This document shows, piece after piece, positions 1,323 to 61,866 of a DNA stretch of 64,000 nucleotides. This DNA comes from a virus. Taxonomy: Duplodnaviria; Caudoviricetes. The first letter of the stretch is position 1, and each line of letters starts with the position of its first letter. The translations under genes were made by a program, and so were the position numbers. The notes under the pieces were generated by a model. That model had not been told where the DNA came from, did not search any database, and saw only the letters and a list, made by a program, of their open reading frames with translations. The stretch is from the IMG/VR virus record IMGVR_UViG_3300031998_000010; one strand, given 5' to 3'.

Positions 1323-1329
1323 AACGATT
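1323..1329 (-). promoter_or_regulatory. class A motif AATCGTT(A), putative phage promoter
   Basis: AATCGTTATATAAAGTGTCAAGGAGG upstream of ATG 1296. Confidence 0.7.
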
Positions 1330-1333
1330 CTGA

Positions 1334-2686
1334 TTAGAACTCAAGGCCTGAATCGTCATCGTCTGTGAGGTCAAGTCCTTGAATGATATCAGGAACAGGG
1401 CCAGTCGAAGGAGTAAGCTCTGAAGTATTGATTTCAGGAGTAGTTATCATCGGGTCTTCATCTGCTCCACCCGGAAGATACTGCATGTTACCATTATTTA
1501 CATCCCAAGAATAAGACAAAGTATTATTCTCGTTTAAGGCCATTCTAGATTTCTCAAGTCTTATTTCAAATACATGTTTGTCAAATATCTGGCGAATTGC
1601 ATATACCTGAGTGGCAATCTGACCTATTGCATCTGAACCTGCTATATTATAGATAGTAGGGAAGGGCACGCCTTTATCATCTTTAGATTCTTTAGTTTCT
1701 CTATTAGCCTGCGCCGCTAATACTACAGCACAACCATATTTCTTACTTAATTGAAATAAATCATGACAGATATTTCCATATTTCTCATGGTCACTAAATC
1801 CCTTTCGGTCATCTACCATGTATGAAATACCGTCTATAAGAAGTATCTGAATATTATGTTTCTTTACAAATGATGAAAGATGTCTCGGAGATACACCCTC
1901 AGGCATATCTTTATCCTCAATTATGTAGAAATCTGCATTAGTTTCTTCAGGAAGTTTCTTTAAGTAGTCGATGTATTCTTGAGAATATTGACCGGTGAAT
2001 ATTTTACTATTCTGATGATGTCCTCTCCAAGTATCAACTCTTGTAGCCAAATATGCGGCCTGCATTTCTGGAGAATAATATGCTACATTAAATCCGGCTC
2101 TATTAGCAGCCTCGCCAATCCTTGTTAAGCACCAGGACTTACCTACATTTGAACGACCTACGAATACAAGTAATTCCTCTACTGTAGAAAGACCACCATA
2201 ACTGAGTTTATCTAACTCGGCAAAACCTGTAGGAATTCTTTTTTGCTTTGACCATTCTATGACCTGGTCACTTCTTTCTTGAGCCTGCTTGATAATATTC
2301 ATAGGAGCTACATCTGTTAAAGAATCAGCAGCATCTAATTGCTGTGCTACAAACTCCCAAGCTACGTCAACATCAGCAGAACCCATATCTGTCAACTTAT
2401 TGAACATATTCAAGAATAAGATATGACGCTTATTCTTCTTTATTTCAGTTACTAAGTAATCAAGAGGTTCATCTACAGCTACAACTTGGAATTTAGGAAA
2501 TTCTGCAGAAAATGTAAATCTATCAGGGACAACATTATACTTATCCCTGTGGTCCAGGATAAACTTTATTTCTTCCTTACAAGCTTCGTAGTAACTTTCG
2601 TCAAAACTACAAAGCTCATCTACCAATGCTTCATCATTGGAGGTAAGTATTTTTGAAATAACCTGTAACTCAATTGAACCTGTCAT
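1334..2686 (-). CDS. dnaB: replicative DnaB-family helicase
   Basis: IPTGFAELD, Walker A GRSNVGKS, SPEM, Walker B ILLIDG, AAQANR, GSDAIGQIA, KSR. Confidence 0.9.
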   Translation of the reverse strand: MTGSIELQVISKILTSNDEALVDELCSFDESYYEACKEEIKFILDHRDKYNVVPDRFTFSAEFPKFQVVAVDEPLDYLVTEIKKNKRHILFLNMFNKLTDMGSADVDVAWEFVAQQLDAADSLTDVAPMNIIKQAQERSDQVIEWSKQKRIPTGFAELDKLSYGGLSTVEELLVFVGRSNVGKSWCLTRIGEAANRAGFNVAYYSPEMQAAYLATRVDTWRGHHQNSKIFTGQYSQEYIDYLKKLPEETNADFYIIEDKDMPEGVSPRHLSSFVKKHNIQILLIDGISYMVDDRKGFSDHEKYGNICHDLFQLSKKYGCAVVLAAQANRETKESKDDKGVPFPTIYNIAGSDAIGQIATQVYAIRQIFDKHVFEIRLEKSRMALNENNTLSYSWDVNNGNMQYLPGGADEDPMITTPEINTSELTPSTGPVPDIIQGLDLTDDDDSGLEF

Positions 2687-2695
2687 TATAAATTA

Positions 2696-3286
2696 TCACT
2701 TCTGAACAGAATTTGTCATCATATTCTTTAACTGACCAAAGAAAATACCATCACCGGCAAGAGATTTTATTTGAGGAGATACAATGATTGTACTTAATCC
2801 ATTTGCGTCTCTATTCTGTAAAAGAGACAACAGCGTCTGACATTGGAACTCCTTGAAATTTACATAATCTATATTTGAGATAATGAGCAATTTTGCAGTT
2901 TCAGCCCATATCTTAATGTATTCAACCTCTTCAGTCATTCCTTTTGTATTCCAACTTTTCTGAATACCGTCAAGATATTGAGAAAATCTGAGGTTGTAAA
3001 CACTCATGTGTAACCTACTATGCTTCCAATGTTTACATATACCACAATATGTTAATAGCTCAGAAGATTCATTTGTATTATTTGCTATTACTGTTATTAA
3101 TCTCTTCTCTTCTGAATTATTAACAATGTCGATATACTTTTGGAGCATTTTAGGGTCTGCATGAAATACATTACTCTTTAACGAGATATTATTCTTTTCA
3201 AGCAAATAAGAAGACTGAACATAATCAGGACAAGCTTTATCACATTCGCCGTTTACACAAAAACCTGTGAAGATACAATCATGCAT
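2696..3286 (-). CDS. DnaC/IstB-like helicase loader (degenerate)
   Basis: N-terminal Cys cluster, LLIISNID Walker-B-like segment, LLQNR..NGLSTIIVS motif, adjacent to dnaB; no canonical Walker A. Confidence 0.55.
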   Translation of the reverse strand: MHDCIFTGFCVNGECDKACPDYVQSSYLLEKNNISLKSNVFHADPKMLQKYIDIVNNSEEKRLITVIANNTNESSELLTYCGICKHWKHSRLHMSVYNLRFSQYLDGIQKSWNTKGMTEEVEYIKIWAETAKLLIISNIDYVNFKEFQCQTLLSLLQNRDANGLSTIIVSPQIKSLAGDGIFFGQLKNMMTNSVQK

Positions 3287-5347: not shown

Positions 5348-5378
5348 TGTTTACCTCCCGATATTTGTTTTGATATGT

Positions 5379-5385
5379 AACGATT
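5379..5385 (-). promoter_or_regulatory. class A motif AATCGTT(A)
   Basis: Heads the replication operon, directly downstream of a terminator. Confidence 0.7.
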
Positions 5386-5921: not shown

Positions 5922-5957
5922 ACTATCTTCCTCCTTAGCAATATTTACACTATATCT

Positions 5958-5964
5958 AACGATT
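5958..5964 (-). promoter_or_regulatory. class A motif AATCGTT(A)
   Basis: Upstream of ATG 5921. Confidence 0.7.
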
Positions 5965-6530
5965 CACAGGGTACATATACTGCCGGTCAAGGGGACGAAT
6001 GTTGTAGAGCAAGAAATTTCAAAGAGCGAAGCAGCGAGGCGAGCGGGCAATCAATATATAATAATTTAATTAAAAAACGAAAATAAGAATGAAATTAATT
6101 TATAACTTAATTAATTTATATTTCTTATATTTCTTTATATCTCAATTGATATATCTATATATCGGCAACTTCTTGAAATAATTCCTGAATCTTTATTATA
6201 CTATAGTGAAAATTAATAGTCCTACAAGTTGACAAATCTTATCAATTCTGAAATATCTACTGAATTGATTGAAAATATAATCATTTATTTAGATATTGTA
6301 TCAATCTTGAAATAATTTGAAGATTTAATGTAGGTAAATATAAATTTTCTTTTATATGTTGATGTAGTGTAACATTACGATTTCTTTACGGTCTCATCTC
6401 GATGAAATTAAATCTAAAAAATTTAAAAGAAATTTTCTATATTTCTAATGAAATTTACTTTTATTTTTCTAATGTTTATATATAATCTAATTATATCAAT
6501 ATTTTTCAAATCCCTTCCCAGTAACTTAAA
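5965..6530. other. long AT-rich divergent intergenic region, candidate replication origin or control region
   Basis: Largest noncoding gap, extremely AT-rich, CTTGAAATAATT present twice, beside the replication genes and the divergent strand switch. Confidence 0.4.
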
Positions 6531-6557: not shown

Positions 6558-7433
6558 ATGGATTATCCTTCTGCCTATCCTACGAAATTGCCGAAGTTAT
6601 CTGAAGATGCTTCTAAGAAAGAAAAGAATGATTGGATAAAATTGAGGACCTTGGAGCTATATAGTTTCTTACCTCAGACTACTCTTGAAGAAAGAGATTC
6701 TTATAGAGACATCAGAGATGAAATTATATGTATTAATGAAAGTTTCTTTTGGTATGTGGCAAGATTAAAGATACCTGTAAGTAAATATGTAAGTATAGAA
6801 GATAAATATCAGTCCGCAATATGCAGTTTTATGACCAACTGTTTGTGGGCTAAATTTATGTTTAAACCTGAAGTAACAGATTCAAAGAACAGAAGATATC
6901 GTGATGATTTGGCTTTCACTAGTTTCTTTAAGCCCCGACTCACAGAGTGTATTGAAAGAGAATTATTTGATGTTAAATGGTCACTTCGTCGTTCATTATG
7001 TATCAAGGCAGGCGAACAGTTAGGAAAGAAAGGCACTGAGGTTGTTTATGAAGATTTAGTGAATGTTCACCTTCCTCCCGAAGAAATGGAAGCATTGATG
7101 TCAATATTCTGCACTACTAATACTGCAGATGTAAATGATATTTCACTTTATAAGCCGGCAAGTACTATTGTAGAAGACAGAATTGAAGAAATGTATAATG
7201 ACGAATATGATTCTGTCGAAGATTTATTAGTCCACGAAATGCTTGAAAGAGAGGCTAAACTTGAAGATTCATTCTTACTTAAGATGTCAGAAATGTATGG
7301 AATTCCCTTCAATGAATTAGTAGAAGCTAGACCTGGAGCTGAAGAAAAATTAAGGAGACAGCTCGAAGAAGCAATTAGTGTACAAGATGCATTTTCATTT
7401 AGCGATGAGTATTATTCCGAACTTGATGACTGA
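6558..7433 (+). CDS. phage sigma70-family RNA polymerase sigma factor-like protein
   Basis: Region-2-like RDEIICINESFFWYVAR..IEDKYQSA..KF..FTSFFKPRLTECIERE; region-4-like MSEMYGIP..AEEKLRRQL; GAGAGGT RBS; TATAAT at 6481. Confidence 0.65.
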   Translation: MDYPSAYPTKLPKLSEDASKKEKNDWIKLRTLELYSFLPQTTLEERDSYRDIRDEIICINESFFWYVARLKIPVSKYVSIEDKYQSAICSFMTNCLWAKFMFKPEVTDSKNRRYRDDLAFTSFFKPRLTECIERELFDVKWSLRRSLCIKAGEQLGKKGTEVVYEDLVNVHLPPEEMEALMSIFCTTNTADVNDISLYKPASTIVEDRIEEMYNDEYDSVEDLLVHEMLEREAKLEDSFLLKMSEMYGIPFNELVEARPGAEEKLRRQLEEAISVQDAFSFSDEYYSELDD

Positions 7434-14740: not shown

Positions 14741-17700
14741 TTAGATTGTTGGTTTTGTATATCTAACTGTGATGTAAGCAGTAGCATTAGCTAATGCAGT
14801 ACCTGCAAGATATGTAATATTTGTTCCATCTATCTTAATGCACAATTCTTCATCTCCAGCAGTCGAATCATAAGCAGAAATCATTCCACTATATGCAACA
14901 TTAGAAGATGTATAACTTGTAAATCCTTCTTTAATAAAGATGATATTAGCAGAAATTCCATGTGCTACAGTCTGTGAAGATGATGCTGACAATGAACTGA
15001 GAGTTAATGTTTGTTCATATAATGTAGTACCATCTGCCCAAGTACCTACAACTTTTTCTCCTGAAGAATAAATATCATGATACTTCACTAACTCGGTTAC
15101 ACGAATTGAATCCCAATGCGTAGGGTCAAATGCTTCTTGAGCAGTAATTGCTGTATTACACCTATAGAGCTGTGTTGTATCACCATCATAATAAATTACA
15201 TAATCTCCAATTGAGTATGCTAAAGTATAAGTTACAACTATTTCATCATCAACAGCCGGAGCAGATGTAAATGTAATCTTATTTGTTGTGTCATCAAAAG
15301 TATAATCTGATGTTTCCGCACCTGCTACTTTGACCGATGTAATTCCTGATGCAACTTTCGTGAGGGTGAATTCGGTAGTAGAACCATCTCCTGTGAAAGT
15401 ATCGCTTACATTCTCATTGTAATTAGATGCTACGCACGAATTTGATAACTTAGATGCAAGATTAGACTGAATGGGATTAATTCTTGTATTTGTATAGGAC
15501 ATTACCGCACTATTTGTAGGAACATTCTCTGTATTATAGAACGGGTCTTGTACCTTATATGTAATTCCTATTTTAGAAGCAATATATTCATAATATGTGT
15601 CTAATGCAAATGTAGGCGCAATTAATGTTCTTGTGAAATAATCTGTATAATTTGTATCCCAGTCTGCAGGCTTATAATCCAATTCAGTATATGTGCCACC
15701 ATCATACTTCCAAATGTTATCCATAACTTCATCCCAGTTAGGATTATTATTTGAAGTATACTGTGCAGCACCTTCTACAGCAACATATTCATCATCTACT
15801 TTTGTGAAATAATCAGAATAGTTATCTTCCCAATCATCAGGTTCTGTTGTAAGAAGATTGTAATAAGGAACGACTGGAGCCGATGTAAATGTTATTGTAT
15901 AATTAGTTGAATCAAAGGTATAATCTACATTTTCAACTTGAACAACTCCATCAAGTGTTACCTCAAGGAGTTCTTCAATTGGTGAATAATTGATTACAAA
16001 AGTTGTAGTTACACCATCTCCTGTGAATTCATCAGTTATAGTTACTATTGTTTGTTCAACAGTACTTGAAGTTTCAACAAAAGCAGAAGTTCCCAATGAT
16101 TTTCCATCAAATGTTTTATTTGTCATATTCTGATACGAAGTAGTATCTATGAGTTGATTATCATTTGCATAAAGCATATTATTCAATACATATACTCTGT
16201 TATTTGAATATGTTATAGGGCTTGTTGAACCGCCATTCTGTGTCTTTGCACCGATGAGATACAGGATTTCTACTTCAGGTGAATTGTATTCAACAATAAT
16301 ATTAGCCTCATCAGCAGGGGCTGTGTTAAATATGATTTGATTTGAAGTACTATCATAAGTATAAGCTGTCGTTTCTACTGTATCTATTGTTATAGAAATA
16401 ATTTCGGCTACAGAATATTCAAGTGTGAATGCTGTTGTAGTTCCATCACCTGTGAATGCTTCAGTATTTTGTATGCCATATTGTACTTGAGACGAACCGG
16501 CTGTATCTTTTGTATCTGTATTAGCAGACGCTGCCCAAGTACCGTCTGCTCTTAATGAATAACTAGCATCTGCAACTAAAGGAGAAGGGACTAATCCCGC
16601 TTCTGTTGTACTAAATATTTCTCCCCAGTCACCATCGCCTCTTAAGAAGTAATTCATTTCACCGGCTGCAGCAGCAGGAACTAATCCTGCTTCACCGGCA
16701 GCAATAGCAGTAGCACCTTGATAATCATTTACAGGAACAGAATCCCAAGTGCCATCACCTTTAAGGAACTTGGCAGTCTCTCCAGCACCAGAAGGCTTAG
16801 GTACAAGACCATCTGCAGAAGGAGTAAATACTGAATAATCAGAAATAGGTAATTGTACTGTTTTTGATGTATTACCATCAGCAGAAGTTAATGTTAATCC
16901 TACTCCTGTAGTATAGTCTACATCTGCATAATATGTAGCGTCAATCTGATTTCCGGCACTATCATTTGTTGCACTGTCAGCTGATGTAGCCGTTCCAATT
17001 GATATATTTGCTTTATCAACCCACCCAGAACCTGTCAGTACTAAATCAGCTAAAGTTCCACCCGAAGCCGCAGGAACTATTCCTGCTTGTAAACTAGTAA
17101 ATTGAGAATAGACATGGTCTGATACTCTAACTACTTTTGTATTTCCATTTCCTAATGTAAATGTAAGAGCAGAGCCTAAATCAGAAGATGCATTACTGCT
17201 GACATCATGAAGATAATAATCAGTTATTGTATGATTACTACTATCCTTCATTGCACTAGTTGCACTTGTTGCTGTAGTAGCAGAATTTGCACTTGTTGCT
17301 GTAGTAGCAGAACCATCAATATCTGCATGAATCTTTCCAGTAGTTGTGATATAAATATCAGGTGTCTTTAATAAAGTTCCTGTCCAGGTATCTTGTTGAG
17401 CACTTGCTACAAGGTAGGCTTTTGTATTCCAAGGACTTTGCTTAACAGACTGAACTTGAGAATCTGATACTTCAGCATTATTGAATACTGGATAAAATTC
17501 GCTATTGTCTTCATTCCAGCAGTAACCTGTGGTAGCATTTCCTTCTGTTACTACAAATATTGTATCTCTTTCGTGTCTAGCATTTGCTAAATTTTCTACA
17601 TATTCAATAGCACTAGCTTTTCTTCTAACAACAGACTGACCACTTCCTGCAGGATTTCCTACATCATAATATAATCCATCTGTATCAGAAAGTGAAATTA

Positions 17701-17808: not shown

Positions 17809-17846
17809 AAAAATATGAATGTGTAATTAAACCTTACACATTCATA
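17809..17846 (-). terminator. intrinsic terminator overlapping a class B promoter
   Basis: Perfect 13-bp stem 17814-17826/17834-17846 followed by a U5 tract on the minus strand. Confidence 0.75.
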
Positions 17847-17847
17847 A

Positions 17848-17853
17848 AAGGTT
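17848..17853 (-). promoter_or_regulatory. class B motif AACCTT, putative late promoter
   Basis: TAACCTTTTATGA at the head of the 17.8-7.5 kb tail operon. Confidence 0.55.
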
Positions 17854-18114: not shown

Positions 18115-19596
18115 TCATTTAAACAACCTTTCGTAATTTTCTTTCCAAGGAAGATTAGATTCTAATTGTCTACATATTGCAAATACTTTGTCGTCTTCAT
18201 ATCTCTTTCCAATAACTTGTAATCCAATAGGAAGTCCTTCATTTGAAAGTCCGATTGGAATAGAAGCAGCCGGAGTTCCTATCATATTTTCTAAATAAGT
18301 ATAGCCGAATCCAATAAGTGGGTCAACTTTTTCATTCTTGATATATTCAGGTCCCTTTGTATCAAAATCATCTGAATTCTTAACAGGTAAACAACCTGTG
18401 ACAGGGGCTAGTATTATATCATAGTTATCAAATATGTCATAATGTGCATCAAGTATATTTGTCCTGATTTCATGAAATTTTCTATAATCTAGCATACTTG
18501 ATTTTAGAGCAATGTTATTCCATGTTATAAAAGCCTCAGGCAATTCTTCTGCATAATCACGAAGTAAATCAAATCCATTTTGCCTATCAATTTCACAATC
18601 TATAGCAGTGTCAATGCATATTCCACGTAACCATGCATTTTCAAGTTCTTCCCTTGAATATTTGAACTTAAATGTAACAGGTTCAATTTCGTATCCGAGT
18701 GAACGAAGTACTTCAAATGAATTAATCATTGCTTCTTTGATTTCGTCTTCAGGGTCTGCAAATATATTGAAATCAAAAGTATATCCAATCTTGAATTTAC
18801 GACCTTCGACTACAGTTAATCTTGAAATTATATTTCTCACTAAATCAGGAGGAGTAGGAACACTGATAGGGTCTCTAGGGTCATACTTTATCATTGCAGA
18901 AAGAACATTTGCAGCATCGGCTACTGTTCTTGTTATTGGACCTCCACAACAATAGGGATGTGTAGCTGTCCATGCATCTGGTCTGCATACACTTGGAACT
19001 AATCCAGCTGAAGGTTTGAATCCAAAACATCCGCACCATGCAGCAGGAATTCTAATTGAACCTCCAGCATCTCCGCCTTCTGCGATTGCAAGAAGACCTG
19101 AAGCAACTGCTGATGCACTACCTCCTGAAGAACCTCCTGAATTATATCCTATCTTAAAAGGAGTAGATGTAGGTCCATACATCTTATTATCTGTTGTTCC
19201 TCTAAATCCAAATGCTGGTGCATTAGTTTTACCAATTACAATAGCACCTAATTTTTCCATTGCTTTGCATATTTCAGAATCATAATCGTCAGGACATACA
19301 AGGCAGTTAACGCCTCCGTGAGAAGATAACCACCCTTTCTTAGACGGCAAGAAATCCTTTAAACCAACAGGAACTCCTGCAAAGGGTCCGACGTATTCAT
19401 TCTTTGCAATTTTTTCTTCAATCTCTTTTGCACGAATTCTAGCAATTTCAAATTTAGTATATACAATAGCATTGATTTTAGGATTGATTTCTGCAATCCT
19501 CTTTTCATATGCATCAAGAATCTCTGTAGGCTTGATTTTCTTTGATGTAACTAAATTACCTAATTCTAATGCAGAACAATAGAAAATATCTTTCAT
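18115..19596 (-). CDS. amidase-signature family enzyme
   Basis: GVPVGLKD, GKTN, GGSSGGSA, GDAGGSIRIPA, GLPIGLQ (Ser-cisSer-Lys triad motifs). Confidence 0.9.
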   Translation of the reverse strand: MKDIFYCSALELGNLVTSKKIKPTEILDAYEKRIAEINPKINAIVYTKFEIARIRAKEIEEKIAKNEYVGPFAGVPVGLKDFLPSKKGWLSSHGGVNCLVCPDDYDSEICKAMEKLGAIVIGKTNAPAFGFRGTTDNKMYGPTSTPFKIGYNSGGSSGGSASAVASGLLAIAEGGDAGGSIRIPAAWCGCFGFKPSAGLVPSVCRPDAWTATHPYCCGGPITRTVADAANVLSAMIKYDPRDPISVPTPPDLVRNIISRLTVVEGRKFKIGYTFDFNIFADPEDEIKEAMINSFEVLRSLGYEIEPVTFKFKYSREELENAWLRGICIDTAIDCEIDRQNGFDLLRDYAEELPEAFITWNNIALKSSMLDYRKFHEIRTNILDAHYDIFDNYDIILAPVTGCLPVKNSDDFDTKGPEYIKNEKVDPLIGFGYTYLENMIGTPAASIPIGLSNEGLPIGLQVIGKRYEDDKVFAICRQLESNLPWKENYERLFK

Positions 19597-19613
19597 TATT
19601 ATTTTCTCCTAAG

Positions 19614-21190: not shown

Positions 21191-21220
21191 GTAATCCTCC
21201 TAAATTTTACTATTGTAAAT

Positions 21221-21227
21221 AACGATT
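21221..21227 (-). promoter_or_regulatory. class A motif AATCGTT(A)
   Basis: Upstream of ATG 21190. Confidence 0.7.
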
Positions 21228-22479: not shown

Positions 22480-22537
22480 GATTAAATCCTCGGCCTAGGA
22501 ATGTCCTGTGTGTTATCTGTCATAATTTTCTCCTTAT

Positions 22538-22578
22538 AAAAAGATAGAGTGTAACCATAGATGATGGCTACACTCTAT
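22538..22578 (-). terminator. intrinsic terminator overlapping a class A promoter
   Basis: 15-bp stem 22544-22558/22564-22578 with one G-U pair on the minus strand, then CUUUUU. Confidence 0.75.
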
Positions 22579-22580
22579 AT

Positions 22581-23363: not shown

Positions 23364-23430
23364 TCTCCTCCTTTTATTTTTATTTTATAACGCCGAGGGT
23401 GTCAAGGAATTACAAAACTCGGCGGTTATA
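23364..23430 (-). promoter_or_regulatory. candidate preQ1-I-like riboswitch (pseudoknot that sequesters the SD)
   Basis: P1 UAUAAC(C)GCCGAG/CUCGGCGUUAUA; loop carries UUCCUU complementary to the AAGGAG SD; A-rich linker; upstream of the VUT transporter. Confidence 0.5.
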
Positions 23431-23440
23431 TCTAATTTAT

Positions 23441-23447
23441 AACGATT
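23441..23447 (-). promoter_or_regulatory. class A motif AATCGTT(A)
   Basis: 10 nt upstream of the riboswitch-like stem. Confidence 0.7.
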
Positions 23448-24312: not shown

Positions 24313-24344
24313 TGTAGCACCCCATTAGTTTTGATAATATATTA

Positions 24345-26861: not shown

Positions 26862-27107
26862 TATTCTTTACCTCCACACATCAAATATAATTGATTACCC
26901 TCAAACCTTGACCTATCATTAGATAAACAGTCGTGAAATTCTTTATCAGATAAAGTACAGGCTGCTTCGGGCATACATTCTGGATTCTTTGGAGTAATAA
27001 TTTTTGAGCGAATACACTCTTTACAGGTTTTCATTCTTTCTCTCCTCTCATATCCGGTTCGCTTATATTTATGTTTGATTGATATTTAAAATTCTCCTAA
27101 ATACTAT

Positions 27108-27114
27108 AACGATT
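27108..27114 (-). promoter_or_regulatory. class A motif AATCGTT(A)
   Basis: Heads the small-ORF array. Confidence 0.7.
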
Positions 27115-28578: not shown

Positions 28579-28601
28579 ACCTGACCTCCTTCATCTATAC
28601 T

Positions 28602-28608
28602 AACGATT
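28602..28608 (-). promoter_or_regulatory. class A motif AATCGTT(A)
   Basis: Upstream of ATG 28578. Confidence 0.7.
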
Positions 28609-41237: not shown

Positions 41238-41277
41238 ATTGAATCTCCTATTTATAAATATATTACATCTATTATAC

Positions 41278-41283
41278 AAGGTT
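41278..41283 (-). promoter_or_regulatory. class B motif AACCTT
   Basis: TAACCTTGTATAA right after a terminator. Confidence 0.6.
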
Positions 41284-44242: not shown

Positions 44243-44284
44243 GCAGTGTCACTCCTCTAACTATCCTTTCTGTATAAATTATAC

Positions 44285-44290
44285 AAGGTT
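44285..44290 (-). promoter_or_regulatory. class B motif AACCTT
   Basis: AAACCTTGTATAA right after a terminator, heading the structural block. Confidence 0.6.
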
Positions 44291-45157: not shown

Positions 45158-45232
45158 TGGTTGAGGATGCAGGAGTTGAACCTGCCCCTACGGTGTCAAA
45201 GACCGCTGTACGAACCGATATACGAATCCTCA
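45158..45232 (-). tRNA. tRNA-Gln (UUG)
   Basis: TGAGGAT/ATCCTCA acceptor stem, GCGGT-CTTTGAC-ACCGT anticodon arm, GCAGG-TTCAACT-CCTGC T arm, encoded CCA. Confidence 0.92.
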
Positions 45233-45247: not shown

Positions 45248-45271
45248 ATCATTAACCTTTCTCAATAGAAT

Positions 45272-45278
45272 AACGATT
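45272..45278 (-). promoter_or_regulatory. class A motif AATCGTT(A)
   Basis: Upstream of tRNA-Gln. Confidence 0.7.
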
Positions 45279-46430: not shown

Positions 46431-46646
46431 CTATAACGATTCTTGTTTTACTTCTTTGCTTTCTCCTCTTCCACAAACATGTTCACCTCGATGAATTCCT
46501 ATCACAGATTCAACATTTACACAGTAGTAGTTATCATGTCTTGCATCAACAGGCAAAGAGTGCTTGCAAGATTTGCAAGGCACTCCTTCCGGTATGTAAT
46601 CTATCATCTTAGGTCGTCTTTTTTGTTCTTCGTCTTCTCTACTCAT
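46431..46646 (-). CDS. small Cys-rich protein
   Basis: CKSCKH..YC..C. Confidence 0.6.
   Translation of the reverse strand: MSREDEEQKRRPKMIDYIPEGVPCKSCKHSLPVDARHDNYYCVNVESVIGIHRGEHVCGRGESKEVKQESL
46435..46441 (-). promoter_or_regulatory. class A motif AATCGTT(A)
   Basis: Upstream of AAGGAGGTGA and ATG 46406. Confidence 0.7.
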
Positions 46647-47568: not shown

Positions 47569-47601
47569 GATTGATACCTCCGGTATTTTGATATGCAATA
47601 T

Positions 47602-47608
47602 AACGATT
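47602..47608 (-). promoter_or_regulatory. class A motif AATCGTT(A)
   Basis: Upstream of ATG 47568. Confidence 0.7.
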
Positions 47609-48110: not shown

Positions 48111-49928
48111 TTAATTTTTACCAAATAAAATATCAAACAATTCTGGATGCTGTTTAAATGATAATTGATTATCGACTATGAATTTTGATATACCATCTTT
48201 GTCTTGAATCAGTTTATACACTTTTTCATCAACAGTGTCCTTAGTAATGATGCTGTATACATTTACAGTAGAAGTAGTTCCGGTTCGATGACATCTATCC
48301 TCAGCTTGCTCCATTGTAGCAGGATTCCAAGGTAAATCATAGAAGATTACATTGTTGGCTACTGTAAGGGTATGTGATACTCCTAATGCACCAACTGTTC
48401 CTATAAGAATAGGGCAACTTGGGTCATTAATGAATTTCTGTTTATCTTGTTCTCTAACAGACTGTTCCATTGTTCCTGTATAACAACATACTTTATAATC
48501 TTTTGCTAGGAATCTATAAATTGTCCTTAGCGATTCAACCCAGTTAGAGAATATGACAACTTTCTCTCCATTTGCTATGATGTTGTTAACTAAATCTAGC
48601 AATCGAGCCATCTTAGAATTTTTAGTGAGATAAGATTTGTCTACTTTAAGGCCTTGGTCTACTAATTCAGGACTACCATTTACCTGCCTAAGTTTAAGCA
48701 TCTTAACCATTGGATTCTTTGACGATAAGATATCATCTCTATGATTGATTGTGTCAGTTAGAATCTTTTTGTAGAGCTTATCCTGATATGCTGTATTTTC
48801 TACATATTCTATAGTATGTAATTTTGGAGGCAAGTCTAATACTTCTGATTTCAATCTTCTTAGCATATTGCCTTGAAGCATCTGCTTTAGTTGAGGAATA
48901 TTCTTATATCCTATTATATCTCCAAAATTTCCATAAATACAGAAATTATCTCTCCAATTGTAGTAACTATTAAATGTATGGCCGTCAATTAATTTGAGAG
49001 GTGTAAATACATCAGTAGGTTTATTGACGATAGGCGTGCCTGTCATAGGCAACCATTCTACTTTAGCAGTACAGTCTTTCTTTAACTTAAGTATCTGCTT
49101 GCCCTGCTTGCTGAGCGGACTGCAGTTTTTGTGGACTTCGTCTAGTATCACCATTCCAATATAACCCTTATTCAAAAGAGTAGTCAATCTTTCTCTAAAT
49201 AAGTAATGTCTATCTTTCCTATAATGAAATGCTTCAATGTTTACAACTAAGAAGAAAGGTAAAAGAGGTTGGTCTTTCTTGCCATACATATGACCGCACA
49301 TCAGGTCTTGTAACTTTTCAGCTCCGCCTCCATCTGTTCTCACTGTACCGTCTCTTTTCAATCTAGAACCTAGAATGTAAGGGCTATATTCGCCATTAGT
49401 ATGTTTCTCAATATCAGCTACCCAGTTATACTTTGCAGAATTGACACATGCTATGATAAGGCAGTGTTTGATTTTATTTACTTTCTTATTGTATAATGCA
49501 AGATTCAATCCTTCAAGCGTCTTGCCCAAGCCCTGCTCATCTGCTAATAAGAAACCACTATAAAGACCTCTTTTCTGTCGGTCAATAGCAAATTTCATAA
49601 AATCTTTTTGATGTTGAAATACATTACTGCCTTCTTGAACATATAATTGTACTTTTGAAATATCAACATCAGGAATATTATTCTGACTTGTGGAATCTAG
49701 CGAAGCATTTTCATACAGATGCTCTGCAGAATATATTTTAAGTTGGTCTGAATACGGACTATTTTTAAATTGTTCAATCAAGAAACCTAATCTGTCAACA
49801 GGAATAGTCCAGTATTTTTGTTCCGGAACATATTGTCGTCCCGGAACATTTTTAACTAACTGAATTACCTCAGGATTATAACTAAACCTGATTTCGTAAA
49901 TATCCTGTTTCTGAACTACTGTAATCAT
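48111..49928 (-). CDS. SNF2-family helicase/ATPase with HARP-like N-terminus
   Basis: LADEQGLGKT, ILDEVH, MTGTPIVN, LRRLKSEVLDLPPK, WNPA..QAEDRCHRTG. Confidence 0.9.
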   Translation of the reverse strand: MITVVQKQDIYEIRFSYNPEVIQLVKNVPGRQYVPEQKYWTIPVDRLGFLIEQFKNSPYSDQLKIYSAEHLYENASLDSTSQNNIPDVDISKVQLYVQEGSNVFQHQKDFMKFAIDRQKRGLYSGFLLADEQGLGKTLEGLNLALYNKKVNKIKHCLIIACVNSAKYNWVADIEKHTNGEYSPYILGSRLKRDGTVRTDGGGAEKLQDLMCGHMYGKKDQPLLPFFLVVNIEAFHYRKDRHYLFRERLTTLLNKGYIGMVILDEVHKNCSPLSKQGKQILKLKKDCTAKVEWLPMTGTPIVNKPTDVFTPLKLIDGHTFNSYYNWRDNFCIYGNFGDIIGYKNIPQLKQMLQGNMLRRLKSEVLDLPPKLHTIEYVENTAYQDKLYKKILTDTINHRDDILSSKNPMVKMLKLRQVNGSPELVDQGLKVDKSYLTKNSKMARLLDLVNNIIANGEKVVIFSNWVESLRTIYRFLAKDYKVCCYTGTMEQSVREQDKQKFINDPSCPILIGTVGALGVSHTLTVANNVIFYDLPWNPATMEQAEDRCHRTGTTSTVNVYSIITKDTVDEKVYKLIQDKDGISKFIVDNQLSFKQHPELFDILFGKN

Positions 49929-51163
49929 TAGCCGTAAAGATACTTTTTCTGCTTTTCTGTCAATTCGTCTATTGTCTTATTGAGTGCCTTCAATTTGAGT
50001 CTTGCTACTCTATCGTCAATTTCATCAGGAACATTCATCAATGTTGTAAGAATATTGCCTTCATGCTTAACAAGGAATTCTGCAGAAAGCGCCTGAATTG
50101 CAAAACTCATATCCATTATTTCTGCTGGATGCCCATCTCCACAAGCAAGATTTACTAATCTGCCCTCTCCAAGGACATATACTGTCTTACCAGAAGGAAG
50201 ATTATATCCTACAATATTATTTCTTGCTTCAAATTTGCTTGTAGCAATTTCTTCAATCTGAGACATCTCCACTTCACAATCAAAGTGACCTGCATTGCAA
50301 AGGATAACACCTTCCTTCATATTGAGGAAGTGTTCTTTTGTAATAACATCGCAACAACCTGTAACTGTGATAAAGAAATCACCTAACTTACAAGCTTCCG
50401 ACATTGGCATTACATCAAATCCATCCATGATAGCTTCACAAGCTTTTACAGGGTCAACTTCTGTTACTATTACCTGAGCTCCAAGCCCCTTTGCTCTCAT
50501 TGCTACACCCTTGCCACACCATCCGTAGCCAGCTACTACAGCTGTCTTTCCGGCTACAATGAGGTTTGTTGTTCTATTGATGCCATCCCAAACTGACTGG
50601 CCTGTACCATAACGATTATCGAAGAAATGCTTCATCTTTGCATTATTGACCTTAATCATAGGGAACCTGAGTTCGTCTGCTTTATACATCTGCTCAAGAC
50701 GTAAGATACCTGTTGTAGTTTCTTCACACCCTCCGATGACATTAGGAAGTAAATGAGGGTACTTTGTATGAATTAAAGTTACAAGGTCTCCGCCGTCATC
50801 AATAATGATATTAGGGCCAATTTTGATAACCTGCTCAATATCAGTTTCATACTGTTCGGGAGATGCTCCATGATGAGCAAACACTTCCATTCCTGATTTA
50901 ACAAGAGCTGCTGCAATATCATCTTGAGTAGATAATGGATTAGAACCTGTTACATACATTTCAGCTCCGCCTGCTTTGAGTACTTTACATAAGTAAGCAG
51001 TTTTTGCTTCAAGGTGAACTGAAAGGGCTACTTTCAAATTTGCAAAGGGCTTTGTCTCCTCAAATTCGTTTTCAAGTTGTCTGAGTAAATCACAATGATT
51101 CTTAACCCATTCAATCTTCTGTTCTCCACTCTTGTACAAGTTAATGTCTGTAATTTCTGACAT
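49928..51163 (-). CDS. ahcY: adenosylhomocysteinase (SAH hydrolase)
   Basis: HLEAKTA, SNPLSTQD, DDGGD, EETTTG, FDNRYGTGQS, GYGWCGKG, NAGHF, GRLVNL..GHPAEIMDMSF. Confidence 0.95.
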   Translation of the reverse strand: MSEITDINLYKSGEQKIEWVKNHCDLLRQLENEFEETKPFANLKVALSVHLEAKTAYLCKVLKAGGAEMYVTGSNPLSTQDDIAAALVKSGMEVFAHHGASPEQYETDIEQVIKIGPNIIIDDGGDLVTLIHTKYPHLLPNVIGGCEETTTGILRLEQMYKADELRFPMIKVNNAKMKHFFDNRYGTGQSVWDGINRTTNLIVAGKTAVVAGYGWCGKGVAMRAKGLGAQVIVTEVDPVKACEAIMDGFDVMPMSEACKLGDFFITVTGCCDVITKEHFLNMKEGVILCNAGHFDCEVEMSQIEEIATSKFEARNNIVGYNLPSGKTVYVLGEGRLVNLACGDGHPAEIMDMSFAIQALSAEFLVKHEGNILTTLMNVPDEIDDRVARLKLKALNKTIDELTEKQKKYLYG

Positions 51164-51282: not shown

Positions 51283-51936
51283 TTACCATATGAATTTGTG
51301 ATTGAACATCTCACCATTATCAATTATTATATCTTGAGCAGTGCAGCTCTTATTTACTGTAGCAAGGAAATATATCCAATCTGCAGCTTCTGTAGATGTT
51401 GCCCACTTCTGTAAAGGTGTCATAGACATAATTTTATTCCACTTTTTCATGTCATTCATGACATCCCAATTTACAGGAGAAATAACTCCTCCAAAGCTAA
51501 TACTATTGCAAGTAGCTCCATATTTTGCTATCTCTTTTGCTGTATATCTTGTATAAGCGATAACTCCGCCTTTACTTGCTACATATTCACCAAAATCAGC
51601 ACCTGTGGTTCCTGATGCTGCTGCTTGATTAATAACTGCTCTAATTGCAGAATTCTTAAGTGCATATTTCTCAGTACACCTTATAAGACCTCGAAGATTG
51701 ACTTCCATATCATTTTCGGTGCCTTGAACTCCAGCGTTATTAATTAATACATGAATGTCATCAACCTGGTCAGGGAGTTTGTCTTTTGATATGTCACATA
51801 CATAATGATAATACTTGGGGTCATCTATAGAAGATTCTGCAATATCAATACCCCAAACTTTATGACCTTCAGATAGAAACTTAATTGCAGCCTCTCTGCC
51901 CATTCCTCTTGAGCTACCTGTTATCATCACATTCAT
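51283..51936 (-). CDS. short-chain dehydrogenase/reductase
   Basis: TGSSRGMG, LINNAG, YVASK catalytic motif. Confidence 0.88.
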   Translation of the reverse strand: MNVMITGSSRGMGREAAIKFLSEGHKVWGIDIAESSIDDPKYYHYVCDISKDKLPDQVDDIHVLINNAGVQGTENDMEVNLRGLIRCTEKYALKNSAIRAVINQAAASGTTGADFGEYVASKGGVIAYTRYTAKEIAKYGATCNSISFGGVISPVNWDVMNDMKKWNKIMSMTPLQKWATSTEAADWIYFLATVNKSCTAQDIIIDNGEMFNHKFIW

Positions 51937-52112: not shown

Positions 52113-52445
52113 TTAGTTTAATATGATTTTAGACTTTTTCATCAATGCCTGATGTACTAATCCTTCAAGTCTTCTTAACGATTCTGCGTCGTAATCTTGA
52201 AGTGCTACAGAAACTTTATCATCTGTCTCAGGTAAGCAGAGACATCTACAACCGTTGTCCTGACAGAAAGAAATAACTTCTTGTAAGATTTCAGAAGTCA
52301 TATCTGGGTCTTTTGTTGAATCATATGTAACAAATATGAATTCATCTTCTTTACAAGTAATAATTTTCTTTAAAGAATCTTGATTTATTTCTTGAATCTC
52401 CATTTCATACCTCTCTGTATAATCTAACTTTATCTTTTGTGGCAT
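52113..52445 (-). CDS. hypothetical protein
   Basis: About 100 aa; start may be MEIQE. Confidence 0.65.
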   Translation of the reverse strand: MPQKIKLDYTERYEMEIQEINQDSLKKIITCKEDEFIFVTYDSTKDPDMTSEILQEVISFCQDNGCRCLCLPETDDKVSVALQDYDAESLRRLEGLVHQALMKKSKIILN

Positions 52446-55043: not shown

Positions 55044-55065
55044 ATTTATTTCCTTCACTGAATAT

Positions 55066-55072
55066 AACGATT
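55066..55072 (-). promoter_or_regulatory. class A motif AATCGTT(A)
   Basis: Upstream of ATG 55043. Confidence 0.7.
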
Positions 55073-55794: not shown

Positions 55795-55855
55795 AAAATC
55801 CTCCCAAATCGTTTGTTTGAAGGTGTGGTGTTATGTATGTTAACGATTCGGGAGG
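55795..55855 (-). terminator. terminator and SD-occluding hairpin containing a class A motif (55842-55848)
   Basis: CCUCCCGAAUCGUU pairs with AACGAUUUGGGAGG (14 bp, one G-U), then AUUUUU and AUG. Confidence 0.7.
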
Positions 55856-57683: not shown

Positions 57684-57690
57684 TATGAAT

Positions 57691-57697
57691 AACGATT
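57691..57697 (-). promoter_or_regulatory. class A motif AATCGTT(A)
   Basis: In tandem with the sigmaA promoter upstream of the structured RNA. Confidence 0.65.
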
Positions 57698-59295
57698 CAA
57701 ACTTCGTATTTACATTTATTTGGAAATTTTTCTTCAAAAATATCAATCAATTCCTGTCTAGATTTCTTATAATCTTTTATCTTATCTGAATCGTTGAGAC
57801 ATACAATTTGAAATTCACTGTTGATTATTGCAGGCCTGACATACGATAAATCGTTTTTGATATCTACATACAAAAATCTATGCAAATATTGCACATACTC
57901 TCCAGTTAGATACTGATAGTAAGAATAAATATGTTGGTTCACATTTGTTTTCTTACGTAGCATTGAAACAGATTGCGATAGTTTTTCTCCACATAATCCG
58001 CCAACTTTCTCTAATGTAGATTTAAGCATCGGAATTATTGTGTGTTCTGGCCTCACTATTTCGCCTGCAGGATATTTATCGTGATGAAGTGCATTACACA
58101 TCATATCAATCCCTGTCCTGCTTTGATGTTCAAACATGCTTGTTGGATTCATGTGTATGTGTTCTTGAAAGTAGATATGCGGTTTATCTCCTGTAAAGAA
58201 ATCACTTGCTCCCATTGGATTAAGAGGAAACATATCATCATTGAAATATATGAACTTTTCTGATAAATCAGGAATTCTCCATAAGAATGATTCAATAGTA
58301 CAACTATTAAATGTAGGAAAATATTGTTTAGGAATAAAATCAGAATGATAAACAATCTTAACCTTACTCGTATCTAACCATACAGGAATCTGACTCTCAC
58401 GAGCAACAATTAAGATTATTCGCTTCACAAAGGGCATGTATTCATCAATTCCGCGAATCAGATACTTCAATGTACCCCAAGAACGAAATCTAACTCCTGA
58501 AGCAGAGTAACTTCCTGTTGCTTTATTGAAATCAAGTATCCAATGTTTATCTGCACTATTCACATAAGGAATTACTGCGTCCATTGTGGGCTGCACATCT
58601 TCTTCTGTATATTCTCGCTTATTATTCATTCCCTCAAGTTGTGCATTTGTGAGCTTTCGCATGTAGTTCCAATCATATTCTTTTTCCTTAGCCCAAGTAG
58701 AAGGACATGCTCCAGGGCCTGTATATTTCAACGAAAATTCTTCAATGCATCCTTCAGGAAAATCATATGCTTTATCAGGGAATTGAGAAAAGCATTTTGC
58801 TACAAAGATATCGTCTTCAAAACCTTCTCCCCTTTCTGGGTCAATATCTGGCATATCTATTTTACTGTAGATAGCTTTTGATATTGCTAAAAACATCAAT
58901 GGACAACTTCTATGCCTAATTACTCCAATACCGTCAGGATGCTCATCTATTGTGTTAACATATAACTGAGGGTCAGCTTTCAATATACGACCATCATCAT
59001 CTAACATGATTAAGTAATCATATTTAGAATCTAAAAATTTTCTTCTGAGTTCTTTTCTTGCTCCAAGTATCCCGAGTTTGTCATAGTTATATATTGTGAT
59101 AGTATTAGGTGTAGGAGGTACCTGATAATTTTGCCAATTTTGTGCAATAATCATTATATCAATATCAGGCCATAATTCTCCTAATCTAAGTAATAACTCG
59201 GAGCAACGCCTGGAACGTTCTCTCCGAGTTTCAATATGATATTGACTATCATTATCTGGAAAGTATGAAATAATTCCAAATACTTTACGAATCAT
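57697..59295 (-). CDS. glycosyltransferase (GT-A-like) / Stealth-family hexose-1-phosphate transferase fusion
   Basis: N-terminal DYLIMLDDD; Stealth CR1 DAVIPYVN..D..W, CR2 LKYLIRGI..PTFNS..IE..LSEKFIYFNDDMF, CR4 CLND..FPNKCKYE. Confidence 0.85.
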   Translation of the reverse strand: MIRKVFGIISYFPDNDSQYHIETRRERSRRCSELLLRLGELWPDIDIMIIAQNWQNYQVPPTPNTITIYNYDKLGILGARKELRRKFLDSKYDYLIMLDDDGRILKADPQLYVNTIDEHPDGIGVIRHRSCPLMFLAISKAIYSKIDMPDIDPERGEGFEDDIFVAKCFSQFPDKAYDFPEGCIEEFSLKYTGPGACPSTWAKEKEYDWNYMRKLTNAQLEGMNNKREYTEEDVQPTMDAVIPYVNSADKHWILDFNKATGSYSASGVRFRSWGTLKYLIRGIDEYMPFVKRIILIVARESQIPVWLDTSKVKIVYHSDFIPKQYFPTFNSCTIESFLWRIPDLSEKFIYFNDDMFPLNPMGASDFFTGDKPHIYFQEHIHMNPTSMFEHQSRTGIDMMCNALHHDKYPAGEIVRPEHTIIPMLKSTLEKVGGLCGEKLSQSVSMLRKKTNVNQHIYSYYQYLTGEYVQYLHRFLYVDIKNDLSYVRPAIINSEFQIVCLNDSDKIKDYKKSRQELIDIFEEKFPNKCKYEV

Positions 59296-59661: not shown

Positions 59662-59910
59662 CTATAAAAGGTTGTTAAATGTGCATAGACCACATGCGCC
59701 TTGGTTAAAATATGAACAATTGGTTCTATCTGCAAAAGGACACTTATCCGTAGAAGTACTTGATTCTGATGCTTTTCTAATAGAATATATTTTCTGGTCA
59801 ACTAAATGAAATTTTTCATACAATTTAGAATCAGGTGTGAATTTAACAAGGACTTCATCAAGAGCCATTTCAATAAGAAATAATTCTTCGTGAGATAATT
59901 CAACTGTCAT
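59662..59910 (-). CDS. small Cys-containing hypothetical protein
   Basis: GGAGGT RBS. Confidence 0.7.
   Translation of the reverse strand: MTVELSHEELFLIEMALDEVLVKFTPDSKLYEKFHLVDQKIYSIRKASESSTSTDKCPFADRTNCSYFNQGACGLCTFNNLL
59668..59673 (-). promoter_or_regulatory. class B motif AACCTT
   Basis: CAACCTTTTATAG upstream of ATG 59634. Confidence 0.55.
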
Positions 59911-59922
59911 GTTATACCTCCG

Positions 59923-61836
59923 TCAAATATTGAACCTTGCTCTGAAATCTGCTTCTGTTATCTTTTCAATACCAAGCTGTGTAGCTTTTTTATTCTTTGA
60001 ACTTGAGCTATCAGGGTCATCAGTAATCAAGTATTTTGTATCCTTGGTAATATCTCCGACTATGAATCCCTTGTTATTAAGAAGCTGTTCAAATGATTTC
60101 CTCGGAATACTTAACGAACCCGTAATTGCTACCTTAATTTTTGAATTATTACTGTTTTCATTGTCAAATACTAAATTTTCCTTTATTAAATTCAATCTCT
60201 TAAATTTGTCAATATGTTGAATGATTGAACGAGAATTAGCATCACCTAATCTATAAGCCATATTATAAGGAATTTCGCCATTCATCAATTTGACTACATC
60301 TTCAGGATAATGAGATAATAAATCGGCAGTAGCGTCACCTAATCTAGGAATATTAAGAGCCTTGAGAGCAGATATAATAGAAACTTTATTCTTGTACAAA
60401 CCATTGAGCATCTGTGCAAATAATCTATACTGAGCACCAATTATCTGGTCACCTGAAGAGAATCTTGCGGCCATAATAAGATGGTCGTTCTTAGGGTCAT
60501 ATACAGATTCAATGGATATGTTGTCCTTCAAAAATTCTGTAAAGAACTTCAACTTCAAAATATCCCCAAGTCCATCAATAGGTGCTATATTATTACACCA
60601 TACAAGCAAATCTTGAATCTGAATATCTCTGCAATCAGGATTAGGACACTTGAGGTGAACACCTTCTACTGTGAGAGCAGTTCCACAGCAAGGGCAAGTA
60701 TCCGGAACTTCAGGTGCAACTGGCTTAAGTGTTTCTTCAATATAAGGAATGACTTCTCCGCTTCTAAGCATTCTAACTCTTGCCCCTACACCCCAACCAT
60801 TCATTGTGACCATCTTTGCATTACAGCCGGCACATTTCTTGACGGTAGCTCCTGACAACTGAATAGGCTCGACATGAAGAATTGGAATCAAATATTTCAT
60901 CTTACTAAGATTCCACTCAATTCCTGTTATTGTAGTTACTGCAGATTCTGCTTTGAACTTAAATGCAGAAGCATTATAGGAGATATTAGTACCTACTTCA
61001 GCTTGATTAAATGTGATATCATTAGAAGTGATAACAAGCCCATCTGCTGGATAATGTGTATACCAACTTCCTTTTAAGGATTTCATATCATTTTCAAACT
61101 GTTCGAGATTTGAGTACTCCCGAGATACCATACATACAACATTTCTGAAATTAGCAACTAACCAGCTATGCATTGATTCATAATCTGAGAAAGGATAAAG
61201 AGGAAAAGGATATGATTGATTTGATTCAATTCCAATAGCTGTATAAACAACTACTGTTAGATATCTGAGGTCGTCGCTTACTTCTTTCATGCCAATCAAC
61301 CCTGCAGTAGAATTTCTAGGATTCTTTGCATCTTCATGTGTCAGTGAGAACTCTTCAAACTTATCTAAAGACATCAATATCTCGCCTCTAACTGCACCTG
61401 TAAATTCTTTATCTTCAAGAGTGAAGTACTCGGGAACTATTCTATGTATCTTGTCAGTAATGTCAATTCCAATGTTACCATCACCTCTAGTTAGGGCTTG
61501 ATACATTACACCATTTCGATAATACATCGCACAGCTTAAGCCGTCTAACTTGAGCGTTACGCAAGTTTTCTTATCTCTCAGTCCTTTAGGAAATTCATCC
61601 CAACTATGACACTTAGGCAAGCTTCCAACTACACCATATTTATGAGGAAACTTGTCTCCTGAAGTGCTTGAAATATCATAACCATGACCAACTGACAATA
61701 GAGGAGAATTTGGATTCTCAGCCCGTTCCTCTTCAATCAATGCATCAAATTCAGCATCAGAAAGCGGAGATGTTCCGTTGGAATAGTACTTCTGTGATGC
61801 TTCTTTGATTAGTTTCTGTCTTGTTTCAGTATCCAT
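59923..61836 (-). CDS. ligA: NAD-dependent DNA ligase
   Basis: YY..G..SDAEFD, KLDGLS adenylation motif, TRGDG, NPRN..AG, RSGEVIP, zinc finger CPCC..CPNPDC, BRCT VAITGSL. Confidence 0.93.
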   Translation of the reverse strand: MDTETRQKLIKEASQKYYSNGTSPLSDAEFDALIEEERAENPNSPLLSVGHGYDISSTSGDKFPHKYGVVGSLPKCHSWDEFPKGLRDKKTCVTLKLDGLSCAMYYRNGVMYQALTRGDGNIGIDITDKIHRIVPEYFTLEDKEFTGAVRGEILMSLDKFEEFSLTHEDAKNPRNSTAGLIGMKEVSDDLRYLTVVVYTAIGIESNQSYPFPLYPFSDYESMHSWLVANFRNVVCMVSREYSNLEQFENDMKSLKGSWYTHYPADGLVITSNDITFNQAEVGTNISYNASAFKFKAESAVTTITGIEWNLSKMKYLIPILHVEPIQLSGATVKKCAGCNAKMVTMNGWGVGARVRMLRSGEVIPYIEETLKPVAPEVPDTCPCCGTALTVEGVHLKCPNPDCRDIQIQDLLVWCNNIAPIDGLGDILKLKFFTEFLKDNISIESVYDPKNDHLIMAARFSSGDQIIGAQYRLFAQMLNGLYKNKVSIISALKALNIPRLGDATADLLSHYPEDVVKLMNGEIPYNMAYRLGDANSRSIIQHIDKFKRLNLIKENLVFDNENSNNSKIKVAITGSLSIPRKSFEQLLNNKGFIVGDITKDTKYLITDDPDSSSSKNKKATQLGIEKITEADFRARFNI

Positions 61837-61859
61837 ATTTATTACCTCCTACAATATAT

Positions 61860-61866
61860 AACGATT
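61860..61866 (-). promoter_or_regulatory. class A motif AATCGTT(A)
   Basis: Upstream of the ligA AGGAGGT RBS. Confidence 0.7.

Follow-up and report, generated by a model that had tools for sequence, protein, structure and literature searches.

The middle and late promoters of phage phiEco32 that depend on gp36 consist of a single element, tAATGTAtA, with no -35 element and with transcription starting 6-8 bp after the element, and the early genes of this phage are read by host sigma-70 (PMC8948821, PMC12276001). These promoters appear to be the closest analogue of an octamer, AATCGTTA (referred to as motif A in the rest of the text), that recurs at gene boundaries in a 64,000-nt stretch of viral DNA (the window), which corresponds to bases 97918-161917 of the 175,559-bp IMG/VR phage record IMGVR_UViG_3300031998_000010. 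Nearly all genes of this record lie on the minus strand, hereafter the coding strand. A sequence-only reading of the window had proposed that motif A is a phage-specific promoter element restricted to the -10 region and serving non-structural genes, and every computational test available supported this proposal. Motif A is real and conserved, and its role is almost certainly transcriptional. We consider it likely that motif A is a promoter element for non-structural genes that lacks a -35 element and is recognised by host RNA polymerase through a sigma-like subunit of the phage.

Like phiEco32, this phage would use a single conserved element located just upstream of the transcription start (here a probable start deduced from the motif) without any -35, and would place a few early genes on host-sigma promoters before a phage sigma takes over. 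The elements themselves are also alike (AAT-GTA-tA in phiEco32, AAT-CGTTA-tA in motif A). The phage studied here differs by its two predicted sigma-like proteins (named sigma-1 and sigma-2 below), its two motif classes, its apparently Firmicute-type host and its 175 kb genome, and no gp79-like co-factor was identified in it. Profile and structure searches returned no sequence or fold match between gp36 and either sigma-1 or sigma-2.

The late promoters of T4 carry TATAAATA at -13 to -6, a box that gp55 reads together with gp33 and the gp45 clamp (PMC1524935). Motif A would resemble them as an 8-bp promoter confined to the -10 region and read by a small, very divergent phage sigma, but its sequence is different, the TATAAATA box is absent here, and it serves replication and accessory genes rather than late genes. 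Moreover, gp55 lacks region 4, whereas sigma-1 and sigma-2 both have a predicted region-4-like C-terminal domain. Fold matches to gp55 (PDB 7d7d) were weak (Z 5.0 for the N-terminal domain of sigma-2 and Z 6.7 for sigma-1), and no family match was obtained for the clamp candidate, the product of a 367-aa gene beside the clamp loader.

Bacillus phage SPO1 follows a cascade leading from sigma-A to gp28 and then to gp33/gp34 (PMC13401047). The phage studied here resembles it by its apparently Firmicute-type host and would also resemble it by an early first phage sigma gene under a host promoter and by successive sigmas that define gene classes. The middle and late promoters of SPO1 are bipartite (-35 plus -10), whereas both classes are single elements here, and no sequence similarity was found.

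Extracytoplasmic function (ECF) sigma factors such as B. subtilis sigma-W read a CGT-containing -10 element (CGTATA for sigma-W). The likeness to ECF -10 elements noted in the sequence-only reading holds for the CGT core followed by TA-rich bases, and the predicted two-domain layout of sigma-2 (region 2 plus region 4) is also reminiscent of ECF factors. It does not extend to the -35, as ECF promoters need an AAC-type -35 at a fixed spacing of 16-17 bp and none is present at motif A; no anti-sigma partner is evident here either. Motif A also fails as an extended -10 promoter (TGnTATAAT): taking the first A of the octamer as position 0 and T6-T11 as the hexamer, the bases at -15/-14 are an invariant CG, not TG. 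With the known class of single-element promoters read by phage sigmas, it shares information confined to the element, the absence of upstream signal and, at the level of predicted fold, a sigma subunit encoded by the phage itself. We therefore regard motif A as most likely a new example of this class, common to a clade of related phages.

Motif A marks gene boundaries on the coding strand

The window contains 18 exact copies of AATCGTTA, 17 of them on its minus strand and one on its plus strand (33794-33801). The observation made in the sequence-only reading is confirmed, although the plus-strand copy had gone unmentioned. In 100 dinucleotide-preserving shuffles, the mean number of copies on both strands together was 2.2 and the maximum 6, making the earlier estimate of 2-3 chance copies per strand about twice too high. 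Over the whole genome, 48 copies lie on the minus strand compared to 5 on the plus strand, and 31/48 of the minus-strand copies are intergenic while intergenic sequence accounts for 9% of genome bases (simple gene call). When all 8-mers were ranked, AATCGTTA was the most enriched in intergenic regions besides the ribosome-binding site (27 intergenic and 17 coding copies, 16.6-fold). Its one-mismatch variants showed no intergenic enrichment (9 intergenic, 84 coding), indicating that the octamer is sharply defined. Strict sigma-A-type promoters were no more abundant genome-wide (59) than in shuffled sequence (55-82); hence, leaving aside motif A and a second motif described below (motif B), most of the genome has no recognisable promoter.

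Fifteen copies of motif A in the window lie at gene boundaries. They are given here with the units that they head and, for some, the distance to the Shine-Dalgarno (SD) sequence.

1322..1329, minus strand: SD 11 nt downstream; heads a 115-aa gene, then the primase gene
5378..5385, minus strand: heads an operon comprising a 289-aa gene, a 399-aa gene, a DnaC-like loader and the DnaB helicase
5957..5964, minus strand: heads a 112-aa gene bordering a 570-bp AT-rich divergent intergenic region
21220..21227, minus strand: overlaps a sigma-A-like TTGACA-18-TACAAT; heads genes of 261, 264 and 493 aa
22580..22587, minus strand: followed by a hairpin and T-run, then two HNH endonuclease genes
23440..23447, minus strand: a structured leader lies between it and a Vut_1-family transporter gene
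27107..27114, minus strand: heads a small-gene cassette
28601..28608, minus strand: SD 9 nt downstream; membrane-protein genes next
45271..45278, minus strand: tRNA-Gln 38 nt downstream, beyond an AACCTT (class B) element
46434..46441, minus strand: heads a UPF0227-family hydrolase gene
47601..47608, minus strand: heads a DUF932 gene
55065..55072, minus strand: SD 9 nt downstream; two small genes next
55841..55848, minus strand: heads a 238-aa gene with no assigned function
57690..57697, minus strand: 6 nt upstream of a perfect TTGACA-17-TATAAT, both heading a small RNA that precedes a phosphoribosyltransferase (PRTase)-like gene
61859..61866, minus strand: SD exactly 8 nt downstream; heads the NAD-dependent DNA ligase gene

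All fifteen had been located from the letters alone, with start numbers one base too high and the end at 61866 correct. The remaining two minus-strand copies lie within open reading frames (ORFs), exactly where they had been reported, and are probably chance occurrences.

50610..50617, minus strand: within the S-adenosylhomocysteine hydrolase gene, without the downstream TAnTA consensus
52176..52183, minus strand: within a coding region, without the downstream TAnTA consensus

An SD had been expected some 10-25 nt after the motif, which is roughly right: for ten of the fifteen copies it lies at 8-20 nt, and the others head tRNA-Gln (45271), the small RNA (57690) or leaders of 36-100 nt. The tRNA constitutes an untranslated target.

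45158..45232, minus strand: tRNA-Gln(UUG), headed by motif A

An AACCTT hexamer begins 15 nt upstream of the mature 5' end of this tRNA, in tandem with motif A. Since motif A heads both a tRNA and a small RNA, a role as a translation signal is excluded. Outside the window, motif A precedes the ssb gene, the dnaX gene and an operon of tRNA-like RNA.

Strong terminator hairpins directly precede at least 4-5 copies of motif A. A strict scan detected a canonical terminator before only 4-5/31 intergenic copies, and we dropped the general claim that motif A usually follows terminators. GC-rich hairpins with T-runs are also found directly 3' of two copies (22530-22579 and 23370-23439, minus strand) and could be promoter-proximal attenuators or very short RNAs; a search of the window with Rfam detected tRNA only and assigned neither hairpin to a known family.

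Anatomy of motif A

Alignment of the copies yielded the full consensus gAATCGTTA-TAnTAnrT-R. Conservation was counted over 39 boundary copies, among which position 15 is T in 29/39 and position 16 is a purine in 35/39, so that a pyrimidine-purine step (T then R) is kept at +8/+9 downstream of the octamer. The information content is limited to positions -1 to +19. No -35 element was found, as had been anticipated from inspection of the sequence: no upstream position or k-mer was informative except for terminator debris, the only k-mers enriched from -45 to -3 being GC stems and T-runs left by terminators.

The position of the transcription start can be approached through SD spacing, which we measured for 67 copies with a nearby ribosome-binding site by pooling this genome with its relatives. 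None of the 67 SDs begins 2-7 nt past the octamer, whereas 20/67 begin at 8-11 nt. The 8 nt that follow the octamer thus seem to be reserved, which would put the 5' end of the transcript at about +8 to +11. The start of transcription therefore probably lies 8-11 nt past the octamer, in agreement with the conserved pyrimidine-purine step and with the 9-11 nt predicted earlier, which would probably place the octamer at about -16 to -9.

Motif A and its variants among related phages

Homologues of the 220-aa sigma-2 protein number 57 in the protein collection, and 59 IMG/VR loci encode one at 27-95% identity. After dereplication, the related set comprised 42 loci totalling 742 kb, with the same range of sigma-2 identity (27-95%). 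The most strand-asymmetric 8-mer across these loci is AATCGTTA itself, with 146 forward and 11 reverse copies distributed over 39 loci. Intergenic sequence represents 10.7% of the bases of this set and contains 87/146 of the forward copies, confirming that the enrichment between genes extends to relatives. The motif logo of the relatives reproduces that of this genome, and the next start codon follows at a median of 48 nt. To follow one site without selecting on the motif, we used the intergenic slot after the sigma-2 stop codon, and the outcome agreed. This slot carries nnTCGTTA in 31/42 loci and the exact octamer in 22/42, although its flanks cannot be aligned. Likewise, the slot of the copy at 5378..5385 retains the motif in the loci L016, L017 and L018.

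Counts on the coding and opposite strands (coding / opposite) were obtained for five related genomes.

G002: motif A AATCGTTA 46 / 6; motif B AACCTTnnAT 26 / 6
G003: motif A AATCGTTA 28 / 7; AACCTTnnAT 0 / 1, with AACCTGACGTA in its place
G004: motif A AATCGTTA 30 / 5; motif B AACCTTnnAT 25 / 7
G005: motif A variant ACTCGTTATA; motif B AACCTTnnAT 23 / 5
G006: motif A variant TTTCGTTA; motif B AACCTTnnAT 26 / 8

Few independent motif switches were seen among the relatives. G003 contains a 25-kb block of reverse-strand genes, in which reverse copies of motif A lie 30-75 nt upstream of reverse-strand genes, and 32/35 copies in this genome match the local gene orientation. As the copies flip with gene orientation, a replication-strand signal is ruled out.

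A full-text literature search for the octamer returned only primers and one coincidental match in a table of SigN promoters, the consensus of which (TTTACGTTT-N14-GATATAA) differs from motif A; the search found no paper describing AATCGTTA as a phage promoter.

Two predicted sigma-like proteins

Searches of the whole genome with the Pfam models Sigma70_r2 and r4_2 gave nothing, and neither a sigma factor nor an RNA polymerase was recognised by Pfam or PHROGs in the genes tested. Structure prediction revealed two sigma-like folds that both family collections missed.

6558..7433 of the window, plus strand: sigma-1 gene, 291 aa, with no other sizeable gene on the plus strand here; its product is a candidate to read motif A or B
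96863-97525 of the genome (L013:16863-17525), minus strand: sigma-2 gene, 220 aa, between the primase and ssb genes, 393 nt past the low end of the window

Sigma-1 matches no Pfam or PHROG family at E <= 0.1, and a sequence-profile search of the PDB remained at chance level (only SigW region 4, E 0.47). Its AlphaFold (AF2) model has a mean predicted local distance difference test (pLDDT) score of 79. The top 50 Foldseek matches of this model are all sigma chains (best E 3.7e-3), the best being B. subtilis SigD with a probability of 1.0, and the top 27 rows of the VIA-wide comparison are likewise all sigma factors, with SigB aligned at Z 8.3 over 173 aa (residues 28-271, regions 2-4). Sigma-1 is thus predicted to adopt a sigma-70-family fold with regions 2, 3 and 4, and it is conserved among relatives. 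Among 55 relatives, a host-type promoter precedes its gene in 25, while motif A is convincing there in about 6-7 and motif B in about 8, sometimes in tandem. In the window, the 570-bp region between the divergent sigma-1 gene and the adjacent motif-A unit (5965-6530) is AT-rich, gene-free and a candidate for a replication origin or a control region, with repeats of TTGAAATAATT-like and ATCAAT words.

Sigma-2 has no Pfam or PHROG match, only chance-level matches in the PDB sequence-profile search, and no paralogue in the genome by profile search. Its predicted model has a mean pLDDT of 75. Among the top matches of the VIA-wide comparison, residues 1-117 (the N-terminal domain) align with nothing other than sigma region 2 (Z 5.0-6.2); for the C-terminal domain, sigma-E region 4 scored Z 4.7. 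Many of the best matches of the protein are ECF sigmas. These fold scores are modest, as such Z values are low for helical domains and all Foldseek E values exceed 0.5. The model tentatively suggests a sigma-like protein with a region 2 plus region 4 layout. A near-consensus TTGACw-17-TATAAT lies upstream of the sigma-2 gene in 27/42 relatives, where motif B was never found and an overlapping motif A occasionally. The leaders of the sigma-2 and ssb genes also contain, clade-wide, 2-4 copies of (C/T)ATATCAA(A/C)A words between promoter and SD (L013:16690-16720 and 17545-17600, with the same leaders in L015-L075); these words look like a translational operator or a small RNA (sRNA) target.

Motif B precedes virion genes

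Three stretches are free of motif A: 7.5-20.4 kb and 28.6-45.3 kb of the window, and 1-27.5 kb of the genome. They hold tail-fibre and virion-protein genes and carry a second element, AACCTTnwAT (motif B or class B), before virion and tail-fibre operons. With the stricter pattern AACCTT[ATG][ATG]AT, 16 copies were found genome-wide on the minus strand, 12/16 of them intergenic, and one on the plus strand. No -35 was found for motif B either.

44281..44290, minus strand: motif B AACCTTGTAT, after a hairpin; heads a 16-kb block of virion genes without motif A
17844-17853, minus strand: motif B, AACCTTnwAT
24341-24350, minus strand: motif B, AACCTTnwAT
38040-38049, minus strand: motif B, AACCTTnwAT
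41274-41283, minus strand: motif B, AACCTTnwAT
59664-59673, minus strand: motif B, AACCTTnwAT

A second motif class dedicated to virion genes implies that two readers are needed.

A proposed cascade and the reader of motif A

From the computed motif statistics, positions, conservation and sigma-like folds, we infer the promoter identity, start site and reader sigma of motif A as follows. The octamer, at about -16 to -9, would be bound by a phage sigma on the host core RNA polymerase, with an A/T-rich melting region at -8 to -3. No -35 would be read by the region-4-like domain, which would dock on the beta flap. The targets would be replication, nucleotide and DNA metabolism, accessory cassettes, tRNA and small RNAs, and motifs A and B together would carry most phage transcription. 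The product of 6558-7433 had been put forward as the factor in the sequence-only reading; its predicted sigma-70-family fold fits that role, but sigma-2 is an equal or slightly better candidate. Sigma-2 is the one most consistently found under a conserved host-type promoter, which fits the first switch of a cascade. In our preferred assignment, sigma-2 would read AATCGTTA and sigma-1 would read AACCTT, the reverse being only a little less likely. Host sigma-A would then drive expression of sigma-2, sigma-2 that of class A (including sigma-1 in some phages), and sigma-1 that of class B, with autoregulation.

The alternative that sigma-1 (6558-7433) reads this same promoter, sigma-2 being a gp55-like late factor for AACCTT, is a tentative second choice. 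Of the two proteins, sigma-1 has the more complete sigma architecture, with regions 2, 3 and 4, and the long -10 element read by its closest Foldseek match, SigD of B. subtilis, has a CG core (GCCGATAT). Motif A lies directly upstream of sigma-1 in some relatives, as autoregulation would predict, and sigma-2 is located within the replication module and has an N-terminal domain that also matches T4 gp55 (Z 5.0). However, motif B is found upstream of sigma-1 in about 8-11/55 relatives, so that a late factor would drive the middle factor, and the most consistently conserved host-type promoter belongs to sigma-2, as expected for the first switch of a cascade.

It is unlikely that host sigma-A itself reads the TATAnT-like bases at positions 6-11 as a -10, and that AATCGT is an upstream specifier for a DNA-binding co-factor of the phage or for an appropriated sigma-A, as with MotA/AsiA of T4. 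T6 and A7 are indeed invariant and T11 is common, and the octamer overlaps a good TTGACT-17-TACAAT promoter in two relatives, a sigma-A-like overlap being also present at 21220 of the window. Yet past T6-A7 the hexamer positions reach only 47-69% conservation, little for a -10 lacking a -35, and the specifier abuts the hexamer where sigma contacts DNA, leaving no room for an activator. Direct reading by a phage sigma is a simpler account of two sigma-like proteins and two motif classes.

Slightly less probable still is an octamer that serves as a repressor or activator operator, or as an RNA-level site such as an endonuclease cut or stability element, and not as a core promoter. Gene-oriented placement in 5' regions would suit an RNA signal too, as would the presence of the octamer before a tRNA and small RNAs, which are sites of 5' processing. 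The octamer is nevertheless asymmetric, being neither a dyad nor a repeat, and it keeps a fixed phase with the downstream pyrimidine-purine step and an 8-nt zone without SD starts. Some copies directly follow strong terminators, where little RNA would carry the octamer, and most operons would be left without a promoter if the octamer were not one. Finally, an origin in composition or codon usage, or a role as a Chi-like or KOPS-like signal of the replication strand, can practically be dismissed, even though a strongly strand-skewed, Chi-like 8-mer might arise in a genome transcribed almost wholly from one strand. Motif A is about 16-fold enriched between genes, turns with the genes in G003 and lies a median of 48 nt before start codons, and shuffles of the window give 2.2 copies.

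Several observations weigh against a phage-sigma promoter read by sigma-2. Both sigma assignments come from predicted folds with moderate Z values (5-8) and without Pfam or PHROG matches. Both sigma genes were present in 10/10 large relatives tested, which also carry both motif classes or variants thereof, and presence or absence thus cannot assign the readers; no natural knock-out of either sigma was found among these ten. The preference for sigma-2 as the reader of motif A rests only on the logic of promoter wiring. There is no cultured relative, as judged from the lack of any match to GenBank phages in a nucleotide search with 24 kb of the window and in a tblastn search with sigma-2, and from a PolA that shares only about 35% identity with the polymerases of Clostridium, Bacillus and Streptococcus phages. 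Genome-wide, about 12 minus-strand copies of AATCGTTA lie deep within coding regions compared to 5 plus-strand copies, and some of these coding-region copies may be internal promoters or chance occurrences. One copy, at 29929 of the genome, is immediately followed by an SD and does not fit the model. Lastly, T6-A7-T8-A9-n-T11 also resembles TATAAT, and host sigma-A could contribute to recognition.

Taken more broadly, the data raise a proposal to which we assign even chances: that in a large clade of uncultured 120-250 kb Firmicute-type phages, nearly all transcription would depend on two orthogonal sigma-promoter pairs, with near-invariant 8-12 bp single elements (AATCGTTA-type and AACCT-type) devoid of a -35, two unannotated and very divergent lineages of the sigma-70 family that have drifted to about 30% identity while the elements stayed fixed, and occasional lineage-specific re-coding (ACTCGTTATA, AACCTGACGTA). 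If this were true, the two pairs would provide compact, mutually orthogonal expression switches and a model of sigma-promoter co-evolution. Motifs A and B make it possible to read a transcription map from the genomes of a whole clade of large, uncultured phages with mostly unannotated proteins, in which motif A marks replication and accessory units and motif B marks virion units. If confirmed, they would supply new orthogonal expression parts for Firmicutes and would make operons, small-RNA genes and timing classes predictable in hundreds of metagenomic phage genomes.

Other features of the window and its relatives

Auxiliary metabolic genes under probable class-A control in the window encode an S-adenosylhomocysteine hydrolase, a short-chain dehydrogenase and a Stealth-family (CR2/CR4) phosphotransferase (49928-51163, 51283-51936 and 57697-59295, respectively). 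In the relative L019, intein/HINT and HNH insertions are present in the genes for PolA and DnaX (L019:11591-14146 and 18495-20684), and PolA is split by a GIY-YIG gene; such mobile-element traffic is absent from the genome to which the window belongs.

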